Source: Escherichia coli
Lineage (GTDB): Bacteria; Pseudomonadota; Gammaproteobacteria; Enterobacterales; Enterobacteriaceae
DNA length: 64,000 nucleotides
Assembly: GCF_030013595.1 (NCBI RefSeq)
Contig: NZ_CP122768.1
Strand: one strand, 5' to 3'
The position numbers were made by a program, and so were the translations under genes. How positions within the stretch are numbered: the first letter of the stretch is position 1; each line of letters opens with the position of its first letter. Below the pieces are notes generated by a model. It was not told the DNA's origin, searched no databases, and saw nothing but the letters and a program-made list of their open reading frames with translations. This document shows, one piece after another, positions 8,890-26,437 of the stretch.

Positions 8890-11541
8890 ATGAGCACAAA
8901 ACCACTCTTCCTTTTACGGAAAGCGAAAAAATCATCCGGTGAGCCTGACGTCGTCCTGTGGGCAAGCGACGATTTTGAATCAACCTGTGCCACTCTGGAC
9001 TACCTGATCGTTAAGTCAGGTAAAAAACTGAGCAACTATTTTAAAGCTATTGCAACTAATTTTCCTGTCGTTAATGACCTGCCCCCTGAAGGTGAGATCG
9101 ATTTTACCTGGAGTGAACGCTATCAACTCAGCAAAGACTCCATGACATGGGAACTAAAACCGGGAGCAGCGCCAGACGACGTTCACCACCAGGATAATGC
9201 TCAAGAAACCAACGAACTGGCGGGAGGCCAGGAAGAAAACGCGCAGGCAGACGCCCACGAGGATTGCCAGGATTGCGAAGTCTCTGTAGCCACTTTGCGG
9301 TTCACACAGCGTCTTCTGCACATTTTTACGTATGCAGCCGGGGATCGGAAATACCTGCATCATGCCACCCGTGAACAACGCAAACACATTACTGCTCTTG
9401 AGATGGATCAGGAAAACAGCTATGTCCAGAATCTGCTGTTGGCCATACGCAGCATGGCAGAACCGACAACTCTGGATAATGCCGCCCTGCTCCGCCTGAC
9501 TGATGCAATTAAGGCAGTGTTCTCTATCACGAAAAAACATCAGCCCTATGAATTTAAGAATTTCATTTCAGCCTGGCTGGATACCGAACACATTGATCGC
9601 GGTCTTCTGACAAAAGAATGGCGAAAAGGAAATCGTGTTTCACGCATCACGCGCACGGCTTCCGGCGCTAATGCTGGCGGCGGAAACCTCACCGATCGCG
9701 GCGAAGGTTTCGTTCACGATCTGACGTCACTGGCGCGCGACGTAGCCACTGGCGTACTGGCTCGTTCAATGGACGTGGACATTTATAACCTTCATCCGGC
9801 ACACGCTAAACGTGTCGAGGAAATTATCGCTGAAAATAAACCACCCTTTTCTGTTTTCCGCGACAAATTCATCACCATGCCTGGTGGGCTGGATTATTCC
9901 CGCGCCATCGTGGTTGCGTCCGTAAAAGAAGCACCAATTGGGATCGAGGTTATCCCCGCACACGTCACCGAATATCTTAACAAAGTACTGACTGAAACTG
10001 ATCATGCCAACCCTGATCCAGAAATCGTGGATATTGCCTGCGGTCGTTCCTCTGCCCCGATGCCGCAGCGTGTAACAGAAGAAGAAAAACAGGATGATGA
10101 AGAAAAACTGCAACCATCTTGCGCAATGGCAGATGAACAGGCAACGGCTGAAACAGTGGAACCGGATGCAACTGAACATCATCAGGACACGCAGTCGCTG
10201 GATGCTCAGTCACAGGTAAATTCTGTTGATGCGAAATATCAGAAACTGCGGGCAGAACTCCATGAAGCCCGGAAAAACATTCCGCCCAAAAATCCTGTCG
10301 ATGCAGACAAATTACTGGCTGCCTCTCGCGGAGAATTTGTTGAAGGGATTAGCGACCCGAATGATCCGAAATGGGTTAAGGGGATCCAGACCCGCGATTC
10401 TGTGTACCAGAACCAGCCAGAAACGGAAAAAACCAGCCCGGATGTGAAACAACCTGAGCCAGTAGTGCAACAGGAACCGGAAATAGTCTGCAATGCCTGC
10501 GGTCAGACTGGCGGGGATAACTGCCCTGACTGTGGTGCAGTGATGGGCGACGCAACATACCAGGAAACATTCGGTGAAGAGAATCAGGTTGAAGCTAAGG
10601 AAAAAGATCCGGAGGAAATGGAAGGCGCTGAACATCCGCACAATGAGAATGCTGGCAGCGATCCGCATCGCGATTGCAGTGATGAAACTGGCGAAGTCGC
10701 AGATCCCGTAATCGTAGAAGACATAGAGCCAGGTATTTATTACGGAATTTCGAATGAGAATTACCACGCGGGTCCCGGTGTCAGTAAGTCTCAGCTCGAT
10801 GACATTGCTGATACTCCGGCACTGTATTTGTGGCGTAAAAATGCCCCCGTGGACACTACAAAGACAAAAACGCTCGATTTAGGAACCGCTTTCCACTGCC
10901 GGGTACTTGAACCGGAAGAATTCAGTAACCGCTTTATCGTAGCACCTGAATTTAACCGCCGTACAAACGCCGGAAAAGAAGAAGAGAAAGCGTTTCTGAT
11001 GGAATGCGCAAGCACAGGAAAAACGGTTATCACTGCGGAAGAAGGCCGGAAAATTGAACTCATGTATCAAAGCGTTATGGCTTTGCCGCTGGGGCAATGG
11101 CTTGTTGAAAGCGCCGGACACGCTGAATCATCAATTTACTGGGAAGATCCGGAAACAGGAATTTTGTGTCGGTGCCGTCCGGACAAAATTATTCCTGAAT
11201 TTCACTGGATCATGGACGTGAAAACCACAGCGGATATTCAACGATTCAAAACGACTTATTACGACTACCGCTATCACGTTCAGGATGCATTCTACAGTGA
11301 CGGTTATGAAGCACAGTTTGGTGTGCAGCCAACTTTCGTTTTTCTGGTTGCCAGCACAACTGTTGAATGCGGACGTTATCCGGTTGAGATTTTCATGATG
11401 GGCGAAGAAGCAAAACTGGCAGGCCAGCAGGAATATCACCGCAATCTGCGGACCCTGGCTGACTGCCTAAATACCGATGAATGGCCAGCTATTAAGACGT
11501 TATCACTGCCCCGCTGGGCTAAGGAGTATGCAAATGACTAA
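8890..11541 (+). CDS. recE: exodeoxyribonuclease VIII (RecE), full length
   Basis: 883-aa ORF; N- and C-terminal regions match remembered K-12 RecE ([22 protein letters not shown]... and ...[13 protein letters not shown]); Cys cluster [16 protein letters not shown]. Confidence 0.9.
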
Positions 11542-12411: not shown

Positions 12412-12618
12412 ATGACAAAAACTTTGAGATATGACGATGTTAAACCATGTCCGTTTTGTGGTTGTCCATCAGTAACGGTGAAAGACATTTCAGGATATTA
12501 CCGGGCAAAATGCAACGGATGCGAATCCCGAACTGGCTATGGTGGAAGTGAAAAAGAAGCGCTCGAAAGATGGAATAAACGAACCACTGAAAATATTAAT
12601 GGAGGCGTTCATGTATAA
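12412..12618 (+). CDS. ralR: restriction alleviation protein RalR (Lar)
   Basis: MTKTLRYDDVKPCPFCGCPSVTVK... matches remembered RalR. Confidence 0.85.
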   Translation: MTKTLRYDDVKPCPFCGCPSVTVKDISGYYRAKCNGCESRTGYGGSEKEALERWNKRTTENINGGVHV

Positions 12619-12799
12619 AATTACCGCTACAATTGAAAAGGAAGGTGGCACTCCTACTAACTGGACAAGATATTCAAAATCTAAACTAACGAAATCAGAA
12701 TGCGAAAAAATGCTCTCAGGTAAAAAAGAAGCAGGCGTTTCCAGAGAGCAGAAAGTAAAACTGATAAATTTTAATTGCGAGAAACTTCAGTCCTCGTGA
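12611..12799 (+). CDS. ydaC: Rac prophage small protein YdaC (RcbA)
   Basis: 62-aa ORF MYKITATIEKEGGTPTNW... with GGAGG Shine-Dalgarno; overlaps ralR stop. Confidence 0.7.
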   Translation: MYKITATIEKEGGTPTNWTRYSKSKLTKSECEKMLSGKKEAGVSREQKVKLINFNCEKLQSS

Positions 12800-17100: not shown

Positions 17101-17222
17101 AAAAAAAAGCCGACTCATCAAAGTCGGCGTCGTACGAATCAATTGTGCTATGCAGTAATTCAAAAAAGGAAGTAAGACAATATGGAGCGCAACGCCCATC
17201 GCTTGACGTTGCATTCACCTGC
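17101..17222 (-). ncRNA. fnrS: FnrS small RNA
   Basis: Reverse complement begins GCAGGTGAATGCAACGTCAAGCGATGGGCG and ends in terminator hairpin GCCGACTTTGATGAGTCGGC plus U-run; matches remembered FnrS, located between zntB and dbpA. Confidence 0.8.
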
Positions 17223-18555: not shown

Positions 18556-19749
18556 ATGATTACGCACAACTTCAATACCCTGGACTTACTCACCAGTCCT
18601 GTCTGGATCGTTTCGCCCTTTGAGGAACAGTTAATTTATGCCAATAGCGCGGCGCGACTGTTGATGCAAGACCTCACGTTTAGTCAGCTACGAACCGGTC
18701 CCTATTCCGTCTCCTCACAAAAAGAACTGCCAAAATACCTCTCCGATCTGCAAAACCAACACGATATTATCGAAATCCTCACCGTTCAACGTAAAGAAGA
18801 GGAAACAGCATTAAGCTGTCGGCTTGTTTTGCGAGAGCTTACAGAAGCAGAACCGGTGATTATTTTCGAAGGTATCGAAGCACCGGCAACGCTGGGTTTA
18901 AAAGCCAGTCGCTCGGCAAATTATCAGCGCAAAAAACAAGGTTTTTATGCGCGCTTTTTTCTGACTAACTCTGCACCAATGTTGTTGATTGACCCCTCAC
19001 GAGATGGCCAAATCGTCGATGCTAACCTCGCCGCGCTCAATTTCTATGGCTATAACCATGAAACGATGTGCCAGAAACATACCTGGGAAATAAATATGCT
19101 CGGGCGACGCGTCATGCCTATCATGCATGAAATTTCGCATTTACCCGGTGGCCATAAGCCTTTGAATTTTGTTCATAAACTGGCGGATGGTTCGACTCGT
19201 CATGTGCAGACCTATGCCGGTCCGATTGAAATTTATGGCGACAAGCTCATGTTATGTATTGTGCATGATATTACTGAGCAAAAACGGCTGGAGGAGCAGC
19301 TGGAACATGCTGCCCACCATGACGCGATGACCGGATTACTGAATCGGCGACAGTTTTATCACATTACCGAGCCAGGCCAAATGCAGCACCTCGCCATCGC
19401 TCAGGATTACAGCTTATTGCTCATCGACACAGATCGTTTTAAACACATTAACGATCTCTATGGGCATTCTAAAGGTGATGAGGTGTTATGCACCCTCGCC
19501 CGCACTCTCGAAAGTTGCGCTCGCAAAGGCGATTTGGTGTTTCGTTGGGGAGGCGAAGAGTTTGTCTTATTGCTACCAAGAACCCCACTGGATACCGCGC
19601 TTTCGCTGGCTGAAACTATCCGCGTAAGCGTGGCAAAAGTGAGTATTTCGGGCTTACCACGCTTTACCGTCAGCATTGGTGTGGCGCATCACGAAGGAAA
19701 TGAAAGCATCGATGAACTGTTTAAACGCGTTGATGATGCTTTGTACTGA
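18556..19749 (+). pseudogene. dgcM: diguanylate cyclase DgcM (YdaM), 3' end interrupted by IS10; translation stops at the first IS10 codon, last 13 codons displaced
   Basis: GGDEF protein ending ...ELFKRVDDALY then TGA inside the IS10 terminus; the expected tail RAKNDGRNRVLAA is encoded in frame on the far side of the IS. Confidence 0.85.
19737..19745. repeat. IS10 target-site duplication, left copy (TGCTTTGTA)
   Basis: Identical 9-mer directly flanks both IS10 ends. Confidence 0.9.
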
Positions 19750-21074
19750 TGAATCCCCTAATGATTTTGGTAAAAATCATTAAGTTAAGGTGGATACACA
19801 TCTTGTCATATGATCAAATGGTTTCGCGAAAAATCAATAATCAGACAACAAGATGTGCGAACTCGATATTTTACACGACTCTCTTTACCAATTCTGCCCC
19901 GAATTACACTTAAAACGACTCAACAGCTTAACGTTGGCTTGCCACGCATTACTTGACTGTAAAACTCTCACTCTTACCGAACTTGGCCGTAACCTGCCAA
20001 CCAAAGCGAGAACAAAACATAACATCAAACGAATCGACCGATTGTTAGGTAATCGTCACCTCCACAAAGAGCGACTCGCTGTATACCGTTGGCATGCTAG
20101 CTTTATCTGTTCGGGCAATACGATGCCCATTGTACTTGTTGACTGGTCTGATATTCGTGAGCAAAAACGACTTATGGTATTGCGAGCTTCAGTCGCACTA
20201 CACGGTCGTTCTGTTACTCTTTATGAGAAAGCGTTCCCGCTTTCAGAGCAATGTTCAAAGAAAGCTCATGACCAATTTCTAGCCGACCTTGCGAGCATTC
20301 TACCGAGTAACACCACACCGCTCATTGTCAGTGATGCTGGCTTTAAAGTGCCATGGTATAAATCCGTTGAGAAGCTGGGTTGGTACTGGTTAAGTCGAGT
20401 AAGAGGAAAAGTACAATATGCAGACCTAGGAGCGGAAAACTGGAAACCTATCAGCAACTTACATGATATGTCATCTAGTCACTCAAAGACTTTAGGCTAT
20501 AAGAGGCTGACTAAAAGCAATCCAATCTCATGCCAAATTCTATTGTATAAATCTCGCTCTAAAGGCCGAAAAAATCAGCGCTCGACACGGACTCATTGTC
20601 ACCACCCGTCACCTAAAATCTACTCAGCGTCGGCAAAGGAGCCATGGGTTCTAGCAACTAACTTACCTGTTGAAATTCGAACACCCAAACAACTTGTTAA
20701 TATCTATTCGAAGCGAATGCAGATTGAAGAAACCTTCCGAGACTTGAAAAGTCCTGCCTACGGACTAGGCCTACGCCATAGCCGAACGAGCAGCTCAGAG
20801 CGTTTTGATATCATGCTGCTAATCGCCCTGATGCTTCAACTAACATGTTGGCTTGCGGGCGTTCATGCTCAGAAACAAGGTTGGGACAAGCACTTCCAGG
20901 CTAACACAGTCAGAAATCGAAACGTACTCTCAACAGTTCGCTTAGGCATGGAAGTTTTGCGGCATTCTGGCTACACAATAACAAGGGAAGACTTACTCGT
21001 GGCTGCAACCCTACTAGCTCAAAATTTATTCACACATGGTTACGCTTTGGGGAAATTATGAGGGGATCTCTCAG
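19746..21074 (+). mobile_element. IS10 insertion sequence, complete (1329 bp), outside end towards dgcM
   Basis: Begins CTGATGAATCCCCTAATGATTTTGGTAAAAATCATTAAG and ends ...GGGGAAATTATGAGGGGATCTCTCAG; length and ends match remembered IS10. Confidence 0.95.
19853..21061 (+). CDS. IS10 transposase
   Basis: 402-aa ORF MCELDILHDSLYQFCPELHLKRLNSL...HGYALGKL matching remembered IS10 transposase. Confidence 0.95.
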   Translation: MCELDILHDSLYQFCPELHLKRLNSLTLACHALLDCKTLTLTELGRNLPTKARTKHNIKRIDRLLGNRHLHKERLAVYRWHASFICSGNTMPIVLVDWSDIREQKRLMVLRASVALHGRSVTLYEKAFPLSEQCSKKAHDQFLADLASILPSNTTPLIVSDAGFKVPWYKSVEKLGWYWLSRVRGKVQYADLGAENWKPISNLHDMSSSHSKTLGYKRLTKSNPISCQILLYKSRSKGRKNQRSTRTHCHHPSPKIYSASAKEPWVLATNLPVEIRTPKQLVNIYSKRMQIEETFRDLKSPAYGLGLRHSRTSSSERFDIMLLIALMLQLTCWLAGVHAQKQGWDKHFQANTVRNRNVLSTVRLGMEVLRHSGYTITREDLLVAATLLAQNLFTHGYALGKL

Positions 21075-21146: not shown

Positions 21147-21710
21147 TCAACGACTGCGCTTAGCGTGGCGCTCCCAGTTTTCTTGCTTTGCCTGTGCCGT
21201 TTTACGTAGTGCGACGTAACACGCCCCGCTGCCGCCATGATGCGGTAGCGCGGTACAATATGCCTGGACATCATCAAATTCGGTCAACCAGCGCGCCACA
21301 TAGCTGCGGACAATATTGGCATGCGATTTATCTTCCCGCCCTTTACCATGAATAATCAGCACATTACGCAAACCATCCGCCAGGGCTTGTTGAATGAAAC
21401 TGAACACCATTTTGCGGCACTCTTCCACCGGCTGGCGCAAAAGATTCAGGCTCGCCTGTTGCGGATATTTACCACTGCGCAGCTTATCCAGCACCCCGTG
21501 TTGCAACCCTTCCCGCCGAAACTCCAGCGGCTGACTTAGCGGGATGATGTCGAGAAATCCGGTGGTGAGGAAATTATCAAGTTGCAGCGTGTCGATACGC
21601 TGCGGCGCACGTTGGTTACGCGTTGGATGCCAGTGGACATCTGTAGCACGTTTCAGCGGCTGGACATCTTCCATGGCGTCAAGAAACAGCGATTTGTCGT
21701 CAAGGTTCAT
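21147..21710 (-). CDS. smrA: Smr-domain DNA endonuclease SmrA (YdaL)
   Basis: 187-aa ORF in conserved position next to dgcM. Confidence 0.9.
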   Translation of the reverse strand: MNLDDKSLFLDAMEDVQPLKRATDVHWHPTRNQRAPQRIDTLQLDNFLTTGFLDIIPLSQPLEFRREGLQHGVLDKLRSGKYPQQASLNLLRQPVEECRKMVFSFIQQALADGLRNVLIIHGKGREDKSHANIVRSYVARWLTEFDDVQAYCTALPHHGGSGACYVALRKTAQAKQENWERHAKRSR

Positions 21711-21904: not shown

Positions 21905-23419
21905 TCAGGATGATTTATTCATAGCAGGAACCAACAAAAATGCGATAAATAACAGACCACTGATTAGCAGAAAGGTATCCGAAAATGCCATAGTTTGCGC
22001 CTCCCTCAGCATCAATTGACTCAATAATTTGGTTGAAGCCAGTATTTCCGATGTCTGGTCACTTCCACTGCGATTAAAAAACAAAGCACTTCTGGAAATG
22101 AAGTCATTCACCGTATGGGGAACAGAAACCATTTTTTCACCCATTCTCGAAAAATGAAAATTAGTTCGATTATTGAGAATAGAGCCACACAGGGCAATAC
22201 CAATCGCGCCCCCAAGATTACGTGTTAAATTAAATACACCAGAGGCTAACTTCAGCCGTTCTTTTGGAATTCCCCCCAGCGTTAATGTTACGATGGGGGC
22301 CATCGCAAACTGCTGCGAAATCCCTCTAATTGCCTGTGGAAACAGTAACTCCTGCCATCCCCATTCGTGGGTTATAGGGGTAAAAAGATACATTGAAAAC
22401 ACAAATCCACCCAGCCCCGCCATCAACAGCCATCGCAGATTTATTTTTTTACTTAACCAGAAGTAAAAGGGAACAGAAAATAACTGGAAAATACCTGTTG
22501 TGCAAACGGCAAAACCTATCTCTTCGGCATTTAATCCGCGAACCTGCCCCAAAAACACAGGTATTAAATATACAGTAGAGAATATCCCAACCCCTCCAGA
22601 AAAAGAAAAAAAGCATCCCAGCGTGAAATTTTTATCCTTAAAAGCATGAAGATCCATTATCGGATTGGATATTGTAAGTGTACGCGCAGCAAATAAAATA
22701 AAACTCACCAATGCCAGAACTGATGTCAGCAAAATAGTATTATCATCCAGCCATCCCCAGCGCGCTCCTTCTTCAAGGGTATATTCCAGACATCCCAGTG
22801 TCATGGCCAACAGGATAATACTCGGATAATCAGCAACTTTCAGTAAAGAGAGATCAGGTTTATCAAAATTAACCAGAAAAGGAATACTCAAAACTAAATA
22901 TATGCCAGGTAATATATTGATATAAAATAGCCATCGCCAGTCGAGGTTATCAGTGATCCAGCCCCCCAGAGTTGGCCCTAGCGTCGGTGACAGTGAGGCC
23001 AGCGCACTGACTACCGCAGCAGCCACCCCCAACTCTTTACCCTGGTAATAAATAAACGCCGTCGTGAAAACTAAAGGGATCATGGATGCGCCAGCCGCTC
23101 CCTGTAAAGCACGAAACAAAATCATGATCTGAATATTCCATGCAAGTCCACACGCGATACTCATTAAAGTAAATATTCCCGCGGATAGAGTAAAAAGCCA
23201 ACGAGTGGAAAATACCCGTGACAGCCACCCAGAGAGCGGAATAACAATAATCTCAGCAATTAAATAGCTGGTCTGAAGCCAGGCCATTTCGTCTTTACCT
23301 GCGGACAGACCACCACCTATTTCATTTAGGGATGACGATACAATTTGAATATCAAGCTGAGCAATAAATAATCCCATACACATACTGGCGAAAGCAATAT
23401 GTTTACGCATAGACATCAT
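21905..23419 (-). CDS. MFS drug-efflux transporter, EmrB/QacA-like (14-TMS type)
   Basis: 504-aa highly hydrophobic ORF with typical MFS features; start overlaps the stop of the upstream fusion-protein gene. Confidence 0.8.
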   Translation of the reverse strand: MMSMRKHIAFASMCMGLFIAQLDIQIVSSSLNEIGGGLSAGKDEMAWLQTSYLIAEIIVIPLSGWLSRVFSTRWLFTLSAGIFTLMSIACGLAWNIQIMILFRALQGAAGASMIPLVFTTAFIYYQGKELGVAAAVVSALASLSPTLGPTLGGWITDNLDWRWLFYINILPGIYLVLSIPFLVNFDKPDLSLLKVADYPSIILLAMTLGCLEYTLEEGARWGWLDDNTILLTSVLALVSFILFAARTLTISNPIMDLHAFKDKNFTLGCFFSFSGGVGIFSTVYLIPVFLGQVRGLNAEEIGFAVCTTGIFQLFSVPFYFWLSKKINLRWLLMAGLGGFVFSMYLFTPITHEWGWQELLFPQAIRGISQQFAMAPIVTLTLGGIPKERLKLASGVFNLTRNLGGAIGIALCGSILNNRTNFHFSRMGEKMVSVPHTVNDFISRSALFFNRSGSDQTSEILASTKLLSQLMLREAQTMAFSDTFLLISGLLFIAFLLVPAMNKSS

Positions 23420-24447
23420 CTCTCATCAACACTGACGGTGACGGACAGTCCCGGGCGAAGAAGTTGCTTTAATTCCTTTGCGTCGTCAAATGCAATCCGT
23501 ACCGGGACTCGCTGAACAATTTTGGTGAAATTGCCAGTGGCATTTTCTATCGGAATCAAGCTGAAACTGGCTCCTGTCGCTGGGGAAAGGCTTTCAATGT
23601 GACCGTGAAACACTTCCCCTTTGAGAATATCAGCACGGATCTCAGCCTTCATTCCTGGCTTCATTCCCGCTATTTGGTTTTCTTTATAATTTGCATCAAC
23701 CCACAACTCACTGACTGGTACAAGTGAAACTAACGATGTGCCACCTTCCACCCAACTGCCTGTATGGGCGCTGCGGTTTGCGACAATGCCATCAATCGGC
23801 GCACGAACAAGGGTATATTCCAGATCCAGTAGTGCCTGAGTCAAAGCGGCCTGAACTTCTTCGATACTCGCACGTACGTTTTCTTCCTGAGCAGATAAAA
23901 CTGCCAGCCGTTGCTTCTCCACCAGGAAATCGTTCGCGGCTTTGCGCTCCTTTGCTGCGACCTGCTGGTAGTCAAACCTGGCATTATCAATAATTTGTTG
24001 CGATATTGCCGCTGATTGTGCGAGTTTTTCATAACGTTCAGTATCTCGCAGGCGCTTTTGCTCCTCATGTTTTACTGCCTGCCATGTTTCACTGGCACTT
24101 TGAATTATCGACTGCTGCATCGCAATAGTGGCTTGAATGCTTTCGAGATTGGCTTTGCTACTTTTTATTTTTGCCTCAAGCCTGGCGACATTTGCACGAT
24201 AATCCCGATCATCGAGACGCAGGATAATATCGCCTTTTTTTACGCTCTGATTATCGCGCACCTCTATAGCAGAAATATAACCAGAAACTTTACTTGCCAC
24301 CGTGGTGATATTACCACCAATGTAAGCATCATCCGTCGTCTGTATAAATCTTCCTGTGCTTACCCACCAGATAAAAAAGACAACGCCAGCTAAAATAATA
24401 CCGATCGCTACCACCCCAATAAGCTGTTTTTTAGAAATTATCATCAC
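23416..24447 (-). CDS. membrane fusion protein, EmrA/HlyD family
   Basis: 343-aa ORF with N-terminal TM anchor, coiled-coil region and C-terminal beta domain. Confidence 0.8.
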   Translation of the reverse strand: MMIISKKQLIGVVAIGIILAGVVFFIWWVSTGRFIQTTDDAYIGGNITTVASKVSGYISAIEVRDNQSVKKGDIILRLDDRDYRANVARLEAKIKSSKANLESIQATIAMQQSIIQSASETWQAVKHEEQKRLRDTERYEKLAQSAAISQQIIDNARFDYQQVAAKERKAANDFLVEKQRLAVLSAQEENVRASIEEVQAALTQALLDLEYTLVRAPIDGIVANRSAHTGSWVEGGTSLVSLVPVSELWVDANYKENQIAGMKPGMKAEIRADILKGEVFHGHIESLSPATGASFSLIPIENATGNFTKIVQRVPVRIAFDDAKELKQLLRPGLSVTVSVDER

Positions 24448-24540: not shown

Positions 24541-25356
24541 ATGACAATCACACTGCAACCCAAAGCATCACCAGGGCATCACATTATCGGACTGGATTCG
24601 GAACATCTGAATGGAGGTACAGTTCCCTGGCATAAACATCTCTATGCCCAGTTGCTTTACCCGGCTGAAGGAGTCGTTCGTGTATGGGCTGGAGAAAGCG
24701 TCTGGCTAGTGCATGCCAGCAGCGCGCTTTGGCTGCCCCCACAAATGCCGCATAAGTTTGTTGCGACAGGCAACGTACTTTTAAAAACCGTACTGGTTTC
24801 AGAAGCGGAAAGTGAAACGCTGGGAAAAGTTTGCTTCATGACGGGTATTTCACCCCTGTTAAGGGAATTACTAATTGCAATTAACCAACTTCCACCGTCG
24901 CAAAGTACCACAGATAAACAACAGTTACGTTTTTCAGCCCTCGAGACACTGATACTTCAGGAAATAAAAATGGGGGTGAAAATGTCACTTGAACTCCCTT
25001 GGCCAAATGATGAGCGGCTACAGCAGCTTTGTGAGAATTTGCTAAACAACCAAGGGTATCTGCCAACATTGGATAATCTAGCGGATAAAATTAACGTCAG
25101 TAGCCGTACACTCATGCGCTTATTTGTTAAAGAGACGGGATTAACATTTCGCCACTGGGTTCAGCAAATGCACGTTATTTCTGCAGTGACGCTTCTTGAT
25201 GATGGATATTCGTTGACCAAAATTGCCCATCGTCTGGGCTATGCCTCAGCTGAATCGTTCGGCAATATGTTTAAGCGTCGAACGGGCTACTCGCCCGGTA
25301 AATTTACTCGTCGATTAACGATGCATGATTATGCAATCACAAGACAAATGATTTAA
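24541..25356 (+). CDS. AraC-family transcriptional regulator (cupin-like N-terminus, HTH C-terminus)
   Basis: 271-aa ORF, divergent from the efflux genes; C-terminal AraC-type HTH region. Confidence 0.75.
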   Translation: MTITLQPKASPGHHIIGLDSEHLNGGTVPWHKHLYAQLLYPAEGVVRVWAGESVWLVHASSALWLPPQMPHKFVATGNVLLKTVLVSEAESETLGKVCFMTGISPLLRELLIAINQLPPSQSTTDKQQLRFSALETLILQEIKMGVKMSLELPWPNDERLQQLCENLLNNQGYLPTLDNLADKINVSSRTLMRLFVKETGLTFRHWVQQMHVISAVTLLDDGYSLTKIAHRLGYASAESFGNMFKRRTGYSPGKFTRRLTMHDYAITRQMI

Positions 25357-25426
25357 CTTATATTTTCGTGAAATCTGTCACTGAAGAAAATTGGCAACGG
25401 ATGGGTAAAACCGTTATAACACTGTC

Positions 25427-25522
25427 ACCGGTCACCAGGACCCCAGGCCGGATTTAAGACGAGGATGCACTGCTGTGTGTACTGTAGAGTCTGGCGGATG
25501 TAGACAGACTCTATTTTTTTAT
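25427..25522 (+). ncRNA. mcaS: McaS (IsrA) small RNA, probable
   Basis: 3' two-thirds matches remembered McaS including the terminator hairpin and U-run; the 5' end is approximate and looks different from my memory of K-12. Confidence 0.6.
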
Positions 25523-25528
25523 GCAGTT

Positions 25529-26437
25529 TTAACTTTGCAGATAGCCGCATTCTCGCCGAAATTGCGTGATTAATGACGCGGTCAGTGGTGTCTGGCGACT
25601 ATCACGTCGCTGAATCAAATAATAGGTCGCTTTCGGTAAAATTTCGCTAACCGGCAACATCACCAGCCCCTGTCCGTGCAAGGGATCGCAGCCCATTTCT
25701 TCAGGTAGTATGCTGAGAAAATCGCTTTTTGCCACCAGACTGATACAGGCTGAGAACGTCTCGCAGACTACACCGACCTGTGGCGTTTGCGCCTGATCGT
25801 CAAGCAATTCACTCAACTGTTTGTAGTAGCTGCCGTGTGGCGTCGGCATTGTCCAGCTGTAGTCCAGTAACTGTTTGATCGAACGGGCACCAATGGCGGG
25901 ATGTCCCGGGCGGCAAAAGATCGCGAATTGCTTTTCCAGTAATTTCTCAAAAGTAAATTCGTGGTCGTAGGGTCCCTGATAATAGGTATTGATGGTGAAA
26001 TCCAGTTCCCCCTGGCGCAATTCATTAATCATCGATACCAGTTGCCCTTCCATAATGCGTACTTTTACCTGCGGATGCTGCTGATGAAAACGAGATATGA
26101 CAGCTGGCATCAGACTGCGGGAAATACTGGCCCCCATGCCGATATTAATTTGCCCTGCCAGTTGCCCTTGTCGTTGGCGAATATCCTCTTGCGCTGCGCG
26201 CAGCTCTTCAAGAATAAGACTGGCGTGCTGATAAAAACTTTCGCCGGCATCAGTTAACGTCACGCCTTTACTACGGCGAAAAAAGAGTTGTGCCGCCAAC
26301 CCTTCTTCCAGCTCCTGAATAGATTTACTCAGTGCCGGTTGCGACATATTCAACATTCGGCTCGCTCCGCGAATGCTGCCCTGACGAGCCACTTCAACAA
26401 AAGCCCGAATTTGATGAATTTTTACCTGAAAAGCCAT
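25529..26437 (-). CDS. abgR: LysR-family regulator AbgR
   Basis: 302-aa ORF with N-terminal LysR HTH, divergent from abgA. Confidence 0.9.
   Translation of the reverse strand: MAFQVKIHQIRAFVEVARQGSIRGASRMLNMSQPALSKSIQELEEGLAAQLFFRRSKGVTLTDAGESFYQHASLILEELRAAQEDIRQRQGQLAGQINIGMGASISRSLMPAVISRFHQQHPQVKVRIMEGQLVSMINELRQGELDFTINTYYQGPYDHEFTFEKLLEKQFAIFCRPGHPAIGARSIKQLLDYSWTMPTPHGSYYKQLSELLDDQAQTPQVGVVCETFSACISLVAKSDFLSILPEEMGCDPLHGQGLVMLPVSEILPKATYYLIQRRDSRQTPLTASLITQFRRECGYLQS

Follow-up and report, generated by a model that had tools for sequence, protein, structure and literature searches.

A small-RNA gene resembling mcaS lies beside an efflux gene cluster in this Escherichia coli genome. 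Its 5′ region appeared to differ from the K-12 version, and the locus raises the question of whether that region was reshaped by the neighbouring island or belongs to a natural variant of the same RNA. The window, that is, the whole stretch of DNA that was analysed, comprises 64,000 nucleotides. A sequence-only reading had placed a McaS-like sRNA at 25427-25522, had recognised McaS in its 3′ two-thirds, and had proposed that the island ends immediately upstream, so that the junction may have altered the 5′ end or the promoter.

The identification as McaS was borne out. In an Rfam scan of the whole window, RF00115 (McaS/IsrA) covered 25427-25522 on the plus strand over model positions 1-96 of 96, not truncated, with 106.3 bits (E = 1.1e-18) against a gathering score of 42 bits. 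By the annotation of NC_000913.3, the RNA would end at 25520 (94 nt). The predicted fold has the three-hairpin architecture of the family (SL1, SL2, and a 10-bp SL3 followed by seven U), and the GGA motifs, four in number at nt 12, 24, 37, and 70, occupy the same places as in K-12. The identity as McaS is confirmed by the full-length Rfam match, synteny, promoter, fold, csgD seed, and GGA motifs. We consider it very probable that the element is a functional mcaS gene, in the allele of those lineages that keep an ancestral AraC-HlyD-MFS module between smrA and mcaS (Table 1). Island-type McaS is thus ordinary: a common, expressed natural variant of a well-known sRNA whose first hairpin is already known to vary. 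Elsewhere in the window, full-length Rfam matches were obtained for RalA, the rac-prophage antitoxin sRNA (12617-12795, minus strand), and for FnrS (17105-17222, minus strand), which are ordered with respect to McaS as in K-12, and a match was obtained for IS10 RNA-OUT; these matches fit the K-12 map around the rac prophage.

Table 1. Features of the mcaS locus, in positions of the 64,000-nt window.
Feature	Position	Strand	Basis or remark
smrA (ydaL)	21147..21710	-	Conserved left neighbour
DHA2 MFS efflux permease	21905..23419	-	ORF; RefSeq annotation of orthologues; tblastn
HlyD-family gene	23416..24447	-	ORF; RefSeq annotation of orthologues; tblastn
AraC-family regulator	24541..25356	+	ORF; RefSeq annotation of identical orthologues
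Last 36 nt of AraC gene, recognisable in K-12 (8/36 bases differ)	25321..25356	+	Alignment
CRP-like palindrome cGTGAaatctgTCACt	25367..25382	+	Alignment
McaS promoter	25391..25420	+	-35 TTGGCA 25391-25396, 18-nt spacer, -10 TATAAC 25415-25420
McaS (IsrA/IS061) sRNA, island-type allele	25427..25522	+	Rfam RF00115; alignment to annotated K-12 mcaS
Stem-loop 1	25428..25451	+	Stem 25428-25433 with 25446-25451; 12-nt loop 25434-25445
Hypervariable block, nt 6-20	25432..25446	+	Alignment; 9/15 positions differ from K-12
nt 36 C>A	25462	+	5′ half of stem 2; directly 5′ of second GGA (25463-25465)
csgD pairing seed, nt 40-55 UGCACUGCUGUGUGUA	25466..25481	+	Duplex search against the csgD leader of NC_000913.3
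Stem-loop 3 (intrinsic terminator)	25484..25521	+	10-bp stem 25484-25493 with 25505-25514, then U-run 25515-25521; Rfam structure line, folds
nt 76 C>A	25502	+	Non-canonical pair by cmscan; private to this genome
abgR	25529..26437	-	Conserved right neighbour, convergent with McaS; stop 6 nt past the McaS 3′ end, as in K-12

The K-12 reference was the locus of NZ_CP010445.1, which was checked against the annotated mcaS (b4426) of NC_000913.3. Pairwise alignment gave 11 differences in 96 nt (K-12 to window): CGCAG>UCACC at nt 6-10, GA>CC at nt 15-16, A>C at nt 18, U>G at nt 20, C>A at nt 36, and C>A at nt 76. The impression that the 5′ end differs from K-12 was therefore correct, as 9 of the 15 positions in nt 6-20 are changed. 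The 3′ two-thirds were also rightly assigned; terminator stem and U-run included, they are identical to K-12 apart from nt 36 and nt 76, two changes that had not been remarked before. Over the 184-nt homologous stretch, 9 of the 16 differences sit in one 15-nt segment, which was reached by 3 of 200,000 permutations; the clustering of differences in stem-loop 1 is not due to chance. The nt 36 C>A change is common to all island-type alleles, and the position is variable across genera.

Aligned with K-12, the 5′ hairpin thus differs as had been supposed, whereas the promoter, for which a change had also been suspected, has identical -35 and -10 hexamers. These hexamers were assigned by reading the sequence. 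The +1 A is shared as well, and only spacer bases 25399, 25400, 25402, and 25405 and position -4 (25423) differ. In sequence, the McaS promoter is equivalent to that of K-12. Upstream of it, the palindrome listed in Table 1 is identical in K-12 and two cryptic-clade Escherichia, and in E. albertii two bases differ outside the half-sites; it is a putative CRP site. McaS is CRP-dependent according to reviews (PMC3634460, PMC8151843). Simple consensus promoter and terminator scans made no call at McaS in the window; they are uninformative because K-12 gave nothing either.

These comparisons bear directly on the proposal that insertion of an efflux island remodelled the McaS 5′ end and promoter, the 5′ region being derived from the junction. 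The AraC, HlyD, and MFS genes form a 3.6-kb module that is missing from K-12, where the order is smrA, mcaS, abgR. On the McaS side, homology with K-12 starts at 25320/25321 (-106) and continues through the AraC 3′ end and the whole promoter; on the smrA side, it ends just past the smrA start codon. With a 227-nt query comprising the AraC end and the 5′ part of McaS, all of the approximately 3,900 island-less genomes started to align at 25321. The AraC gene ends 70 nt upstream of McaS here; in its place, the K-12 locus has some 110 nt of unrelated sequence beside smrA. The claim that the island ends immediately upstream is therefore not upheld, since the AraC stop (25356) lies 70 nt before +1 and homology extends to -106.

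The island-less state also has a history of its own. Island-less K-12, E. albertii, E. whittamii, and a cryptic-clade strain all keep an AraC 3′ remnant beside McaS. In E. whittamii and the cryptic-clade strain the remnant amounts to about 32 codons (78% amino-acid identity and E = 9e-12 in E. whittamii), and in E. albertii it is more decayed. Because island-less relatives retain this remnant, the island-less state is a deletion; the three-gene module came first, and K-12 has the scar of its loss. The remnant of about 32 codons lies between smrA and McaS, at 9652-9747 of locus L010 (E. whittamii) and at 9749-9855 of locus L007, and is longer than the 36 nt of K-12; the difference in length points to separate deletions with different end points.

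A junction effect on the 5′ end or promoter is thus contradicted by the breakpoint at -106, upstream of the promoter, by hexamers equal to those of K-12, and by AraC remnants that mark island-less lineages as deletion derivatives. Moreover, stem-loop 1 is divergent in its own way in E. albertii and the cryptic clades, which lack the island; its variation is thus independent of the junction. No mobile-element ends or target-site duplication were present in 25357-25451. What an insertion would explain is the almost perfect co-occurrence of allele and island, in 1,453 and 1,457 genomes, which is accounted for by the tight linkage of sites about 100 bp apart. We regard remodelling by insertion as barely credible and keep to a natural allele linked to an ancestral module.

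The distribution of the allele was determined by short megablast queries against 5,426 complete E. coli genomes, in which the obligatory 28-nt exact word spanned the diagnostic bases. Window-type stem-loop 1 was present in 1,453 genomes (1,330 exact over 51 nt), K-12-type stem-loop 1 in 3,893, and the module AraC gene in 1,457. A joint AraC-to-McaS query was covered to at least 80% in 1,457 genomes, 1,453 of them at an identity of at least 99%. The island-type allele and the module are one haplotype. It occurs in two sub-forms: approximately 149 genomes keep abgR beside McaS, as in the window, and approximately 1,312, including Ecol_732 and UTI89, lack abgR through abgT. The loss of abgR through most of abgT lies directly past the McaS terminator, at 9175-9532 of locus L003 (Ecol_732) and 18969-19316 of locus L017 (UTI89), corresponding to about 25523 onward in the window. 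Large indel polymorphisms thus flank McaS to its left and right, but 5,385 of the 5,426 genomes have kept it; roughly 39 genomes have neither of the two alleles. Within the module, the MFS gene of the window (21905-23419, minus strand) is an uninterrupted 504-codon ORF that can be aligned over its whole length, at 99% or more, with the orthologues of CFSAN061763 and Ecol_732. RefSeq labels the MFS orthologues of CFSAN061763 and Ecol_732 and the UTI89 copy as 'frameshifted'.

No specific report of McaS alleles tied to phylogroups emerged from literature searches. McaS reads have been obtained in UTI89 by Hfq pull-down sequencing (PMC4546395). Since UTI89 matches the window exactly over the promoter and nt 1-75, this recovery indicates that at least one strain expresses the 5′ allele as an Hfq-associated RNA. 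Phenotypes have been described for UTI89 deleted for mcaS (preprint 10.1101/310631).

In 24541-25426, the AraC-family gene reads in the same direction as McaS, and its stop codon lies 70 nt short of +1. A scan found no terminator-like site between this stop and McaS. The AraC mRNA may therefore end at the McaS terminator, which would place McaS within the 3′ UTR of that gene in island-bearing strains. It is possible that McaS is additionally produced from this 3′ UTR in such strains.

If the island did not write the new hairpin, the divergence of stem-loop 1 needs another account. Its predicted fold is the same in both alleles, with a 6-bp stem and a 12-nt loop (-8.9 versus -8.3 kcal/mol). Pair 7-20, a G-U in K-12, is C-G in the window, and pair 6-21, a C-G in K-12, is U-G. 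The first GGA (nt 12-14, 25438-25440) is unpaired in predicted loop 1, at the same position as in K-12. In these models, stem-loop 1 is rewritten in sequence, not in design. In K-12 McaS, CsrA binds mainly at the 5′-most GGA, and the region that binds csgD overlaps a second CsrA site; mutation of the 5′-most GGA lowers both CsrA sponge activity and csgD repression (PMC10729762).

Part of the rewriting may have a simple origin. A direct repeat, GTCACC-G-GTCACC (25424-25429 and 25431-25436), spans the McaS start in the window and is absent in K-12. Thus nt 5-10 (GUCACC) repeat the GTCACC at the transcription start, and each of the five successive changes at nt 6-10 gives the base found in the neighbouring copy. 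This suggests that the nt 6-10 change was a single templated event copying the neighbouring GTCACC.

A pattern scan of one genome per species recovered McaS in 10 further taxa, namely E. albertii, E. whittamii, two other Escherichia lineages, Citrobacter, Pseudescherichia, and relatives. Across taxa, nt 43-93 and stem 3 are almost invariant, and the first 35 nt differ in every lineage. A 5′ hairpin was found in 10/10 of these other taxa, with GGA unpaired in the loop in 8/10 and a different neighbouring sequence in each. The taxon comparison agrees with van Nues et al. (PMC4824073), who described McaS stem 1 as highly variable, so stem-1 variability is already in the literature. In the cross-genus covariation analysis of helix 1, 60.6% of cells were paired; support is weak because the hairpin shifts register in Citrobacter and Pseudescherichia, and per-sequence folds were used instead.

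The rate of change was compared with that of the surroundings. The flanking genes differ from K-12 by 0.9-2.3%, with 3.7% at third codon positions (64/1,738). Against the third-codon-position rate, the binomial probability of 9 differing sites in 15 is P = 5e-10; substitutions are taken as independent in this test, which is inflated if five of the nine changes were one templated event. Within stem-loop 1, 9 differences separate the two E. coli alleles and 6-7 separate either of them from any outgroup, compared with 3 between E. albertii and E. whittamii. These distances imply that both E. coli branches changed quickly in stem-loop 1. Over the promoter and the AraC remnant, the outgroups resemble the window type more closely than the K-12 type. 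Selection, a mutational hotspot, or a few multi-base events could each lie behind the divergence of stem-loop 1.

Such variability within and between species (also PMC4824073) could be taken to mean that stem-loop 1 is an unconstrained, neutrally drifting spacer whose hairpin and GGA have no function, and deletion of stem 1 did not abolish RNAP binding (PMC4824073). However, GGA is present at nt 11-12 in 12/12 taxa and unpaired in the local fold in 10/12, the stem is kept by changes on both sides of pair 7-20, and the divergence exceeds the neutral expectation. Mutation of the K-12 GGA is, in addition, not silent, as it reduces CsrA sponge activity and csgD repression (PMC10729762). A neutral spacer is accordingly improbable in our judgement. 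Stem-loop 1 would rather be constrained solely as a hairpin that displays GGA; with the constraint so limited, the remainder of stem-loop 1 would be free to change.

The mechanism that this implies for the island-type RNA is that of K-12. McaS would be made when carbon is limiting and would pair via Hfq with csgD mRNA, so that curli are repressed. CsrA would be bound by the loop-1 GGA and the stem-2 GGA, and repression of pgaABCD would be relieved. By analogy, we infer that the island-type RNA works like K-12 McaS. The CsrB repeat is CAGGA(U/C/A)G, and the CsrA SELEX consensus is RUACARGGAUGU. As CsrA motifs, the CAGGA of loop 1 and the GAGGAUG of site 2 in the island allele would be no worse than the GAGGA and GCGGAUG of K-12, and possibly better.

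This comparison can be pressed further, to the reading that selection has driven stem-loop 1 and nt 36 apart and that the alleles are functionally distinct, either through tuned CsrA capture or through extra flhD pairing. Besides the motifs, which are nearer those of CsrA in the island allele than in K-12, it draws on 9 of 15 differing sites against a third-position background of 3.7% (P = 5e-10) and on the distance of 9 between the E. coli alleles in stem-loop 1, compared with 3 between E. albertii and E. whittamii. The predicted duplex of stem-loop 1 with the flhD leader is also stronger for the island allele (-30.5 versus -20.8 kcal/mol for K-12). However, the -30.5 score, obtained in one of four tests, was matched or bettered by 6 of 200 shuffles, the pairing needs the stem of stem-loop 1 to be opened, and five of the nine changes may stem from one templated event at the GTCACC repeat. 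The evidence that the two E. coli McaS alleles differ in function is suggestive at best, and we hold functional divergence to be possible but doubtful; a shared function remains the preferred reading.

Base pairing with known targets was evaluated from secondary sources for the pairing regions and from duplex calculations. Unrestricted duplex prediction against the csgD and flhD leaders returned unrealistically long hybrids with large internal loops and was replaced by segment-wise scans. PMC4824073 assigns csgD pairing to stem 2 and the effect on flhDC to the loop of stem 3. In the window, nt 40-55 are unchanged from K-12 and form a perfect 16-nt complement of the K-12 csgD leader (NC_000913.3). 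This seed lies in the 3′ half of stem 2; across 12 taxa, positions 43-61 are invariant and positions 40-42 vary solely in Citrobacter. C36A costs approximately 2 kcal/mol in the extended csgD duplex, within the flanking extension.

The nt 76 change is of another kind. With a 41-nt query, A at nt 76 was found in 0 of 5,426 genomes, and the same stretch with C in 5,192; nt 76 is C in 11/11 other aligned sequences (K-12 and 10 other taxa). C76A lies in the loop region of stem 3, which otherwise does not vary, and breaks the inner G70-C76 pair; in the predicted fold two inner SL3 pairs are lost and the energy of stem 3 changes from -15.8 to -14.0 kcal/mol. Predicted pairing with the flhD leader is weakened as well, from -13.1 to -7.6 kcal/mol; the mismatch falls within the 7-bp GAUGUCG:CGACAUC core. 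The common island allele (C76) retains the predicted CGACAUC pairing with flhD, at -13.1 kcal/mol. In this genome alone, C76A would probably weaken flhDC activation. Because C36A removes a stem-2 pair and C76A an inner stem-3 pair, this copy of McaS may be partly impaired.

A second private change lies in the same circuit. A complete IS10 of 1,329 bp (19746-21074), with the termini CTGATGAATCCCC... and ...GGGGATCTCTCAG, is flanked by a 9-bp target duplication, TGCTTTGTA. The element interrupts dgcM (ydaM) within its 3′ end, so that the open frame stops with ...DDALY* at 19749 and is separated from its native tail, RAKNDGRNRVLAA* (21084 onward). A search of the 5,426 complete E. coli genomes found no genome with the dgcM::IS10 junction. 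DgcM drives csgD transcription, which puts dgcM::IS10 in the same circuit as McaS. The A at 25502, a single base that occurs in no other genome at a position invariant in 11 other taxa, might be an artefact of sequencing or assembly; the second private change in the same circuit fits a real strain-specific change, and an error is in our view unlikely. Taken as a true mutation, C76A together with dgcM::IS10 suggests that the curli and motility circuit may be altered in this isolate.

For genome annotation, these results are of little consequence, as the allele occurs in more than 1,400 public genomes and variability of the first hairpin has already been reported. They matter more for how the K-12 locus is viewed. 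K-12 represents a derived state, having lost the three-gene efflux module and carrying one of two deeply diverged stem-loop 1 alleles. The K-12 results on McaS (CsrA titration, csgD, and flhD) come from an allele other than the one carried by UTI89-type strains. Should the alleles prove distinct after all, the island-type RNA may be a stronger CsrA sponge or may gain pairing with the flhD leader, and module-keeping lineages such as UTI89 would set the biofilm-motility switch differently from K-12-like strains. The locus also illustrates modular sRNA evolution, in which the pairing seed and terminator have hardly changed from genus to genus and the protein-binding hairpin keeps its shape and GGA only.

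The closest known system is McaS/IsrA/IS061 of E. coli K-12 (b4426). Identity with it is complete over nt 21-35, 37-75, and 77-96, which contain the csgD seed, the terminator stem, and the U-run, and the two share the promoter hexamers, the start base, the three hairpins, the four GGA places, and the order smrA side, mcaS, abgR. Uropathogenic UTI89 (NC_007946.1) carries the same allele, with no difference in the promoter or in nt 1-75, and has the same AraC-HlyD-MFS module; it differs by C at nt 76, G at nt 82, and the loss of abgR-abgT, whereas the window keeps abgR-abgA-abgB. The McaS RNAs of E. albertii, E. whittamii, cryptic clades, Citrobacter, and Pseudescherichia share the nearly invariant 3′ two-thirds and each have their own stem-loop 1; they carry neither E. 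coli allele and no intact efflux module. CsrB and CsrC resemble McaS in that GGA in hairpin loops captures CsrA. Membership of the CsrB/CsrC family was considered and rejected, as McaS has only four GGA motifs, no Rfam CsrB or CsrC match within the window, and no sequence homology. CsrB has 22 GGA motifs, whereas McaS has four, of which two are used (PMC10729762). CsrC has 14 CsrA sites (PMC8151843), and McaS, unlike CsrB and CsrC, additionally acts by Hfq-dependent base pairing. McaS thus resembles a CsrA sponge in mechanism and is not a member of the CsrB/CsrC family.
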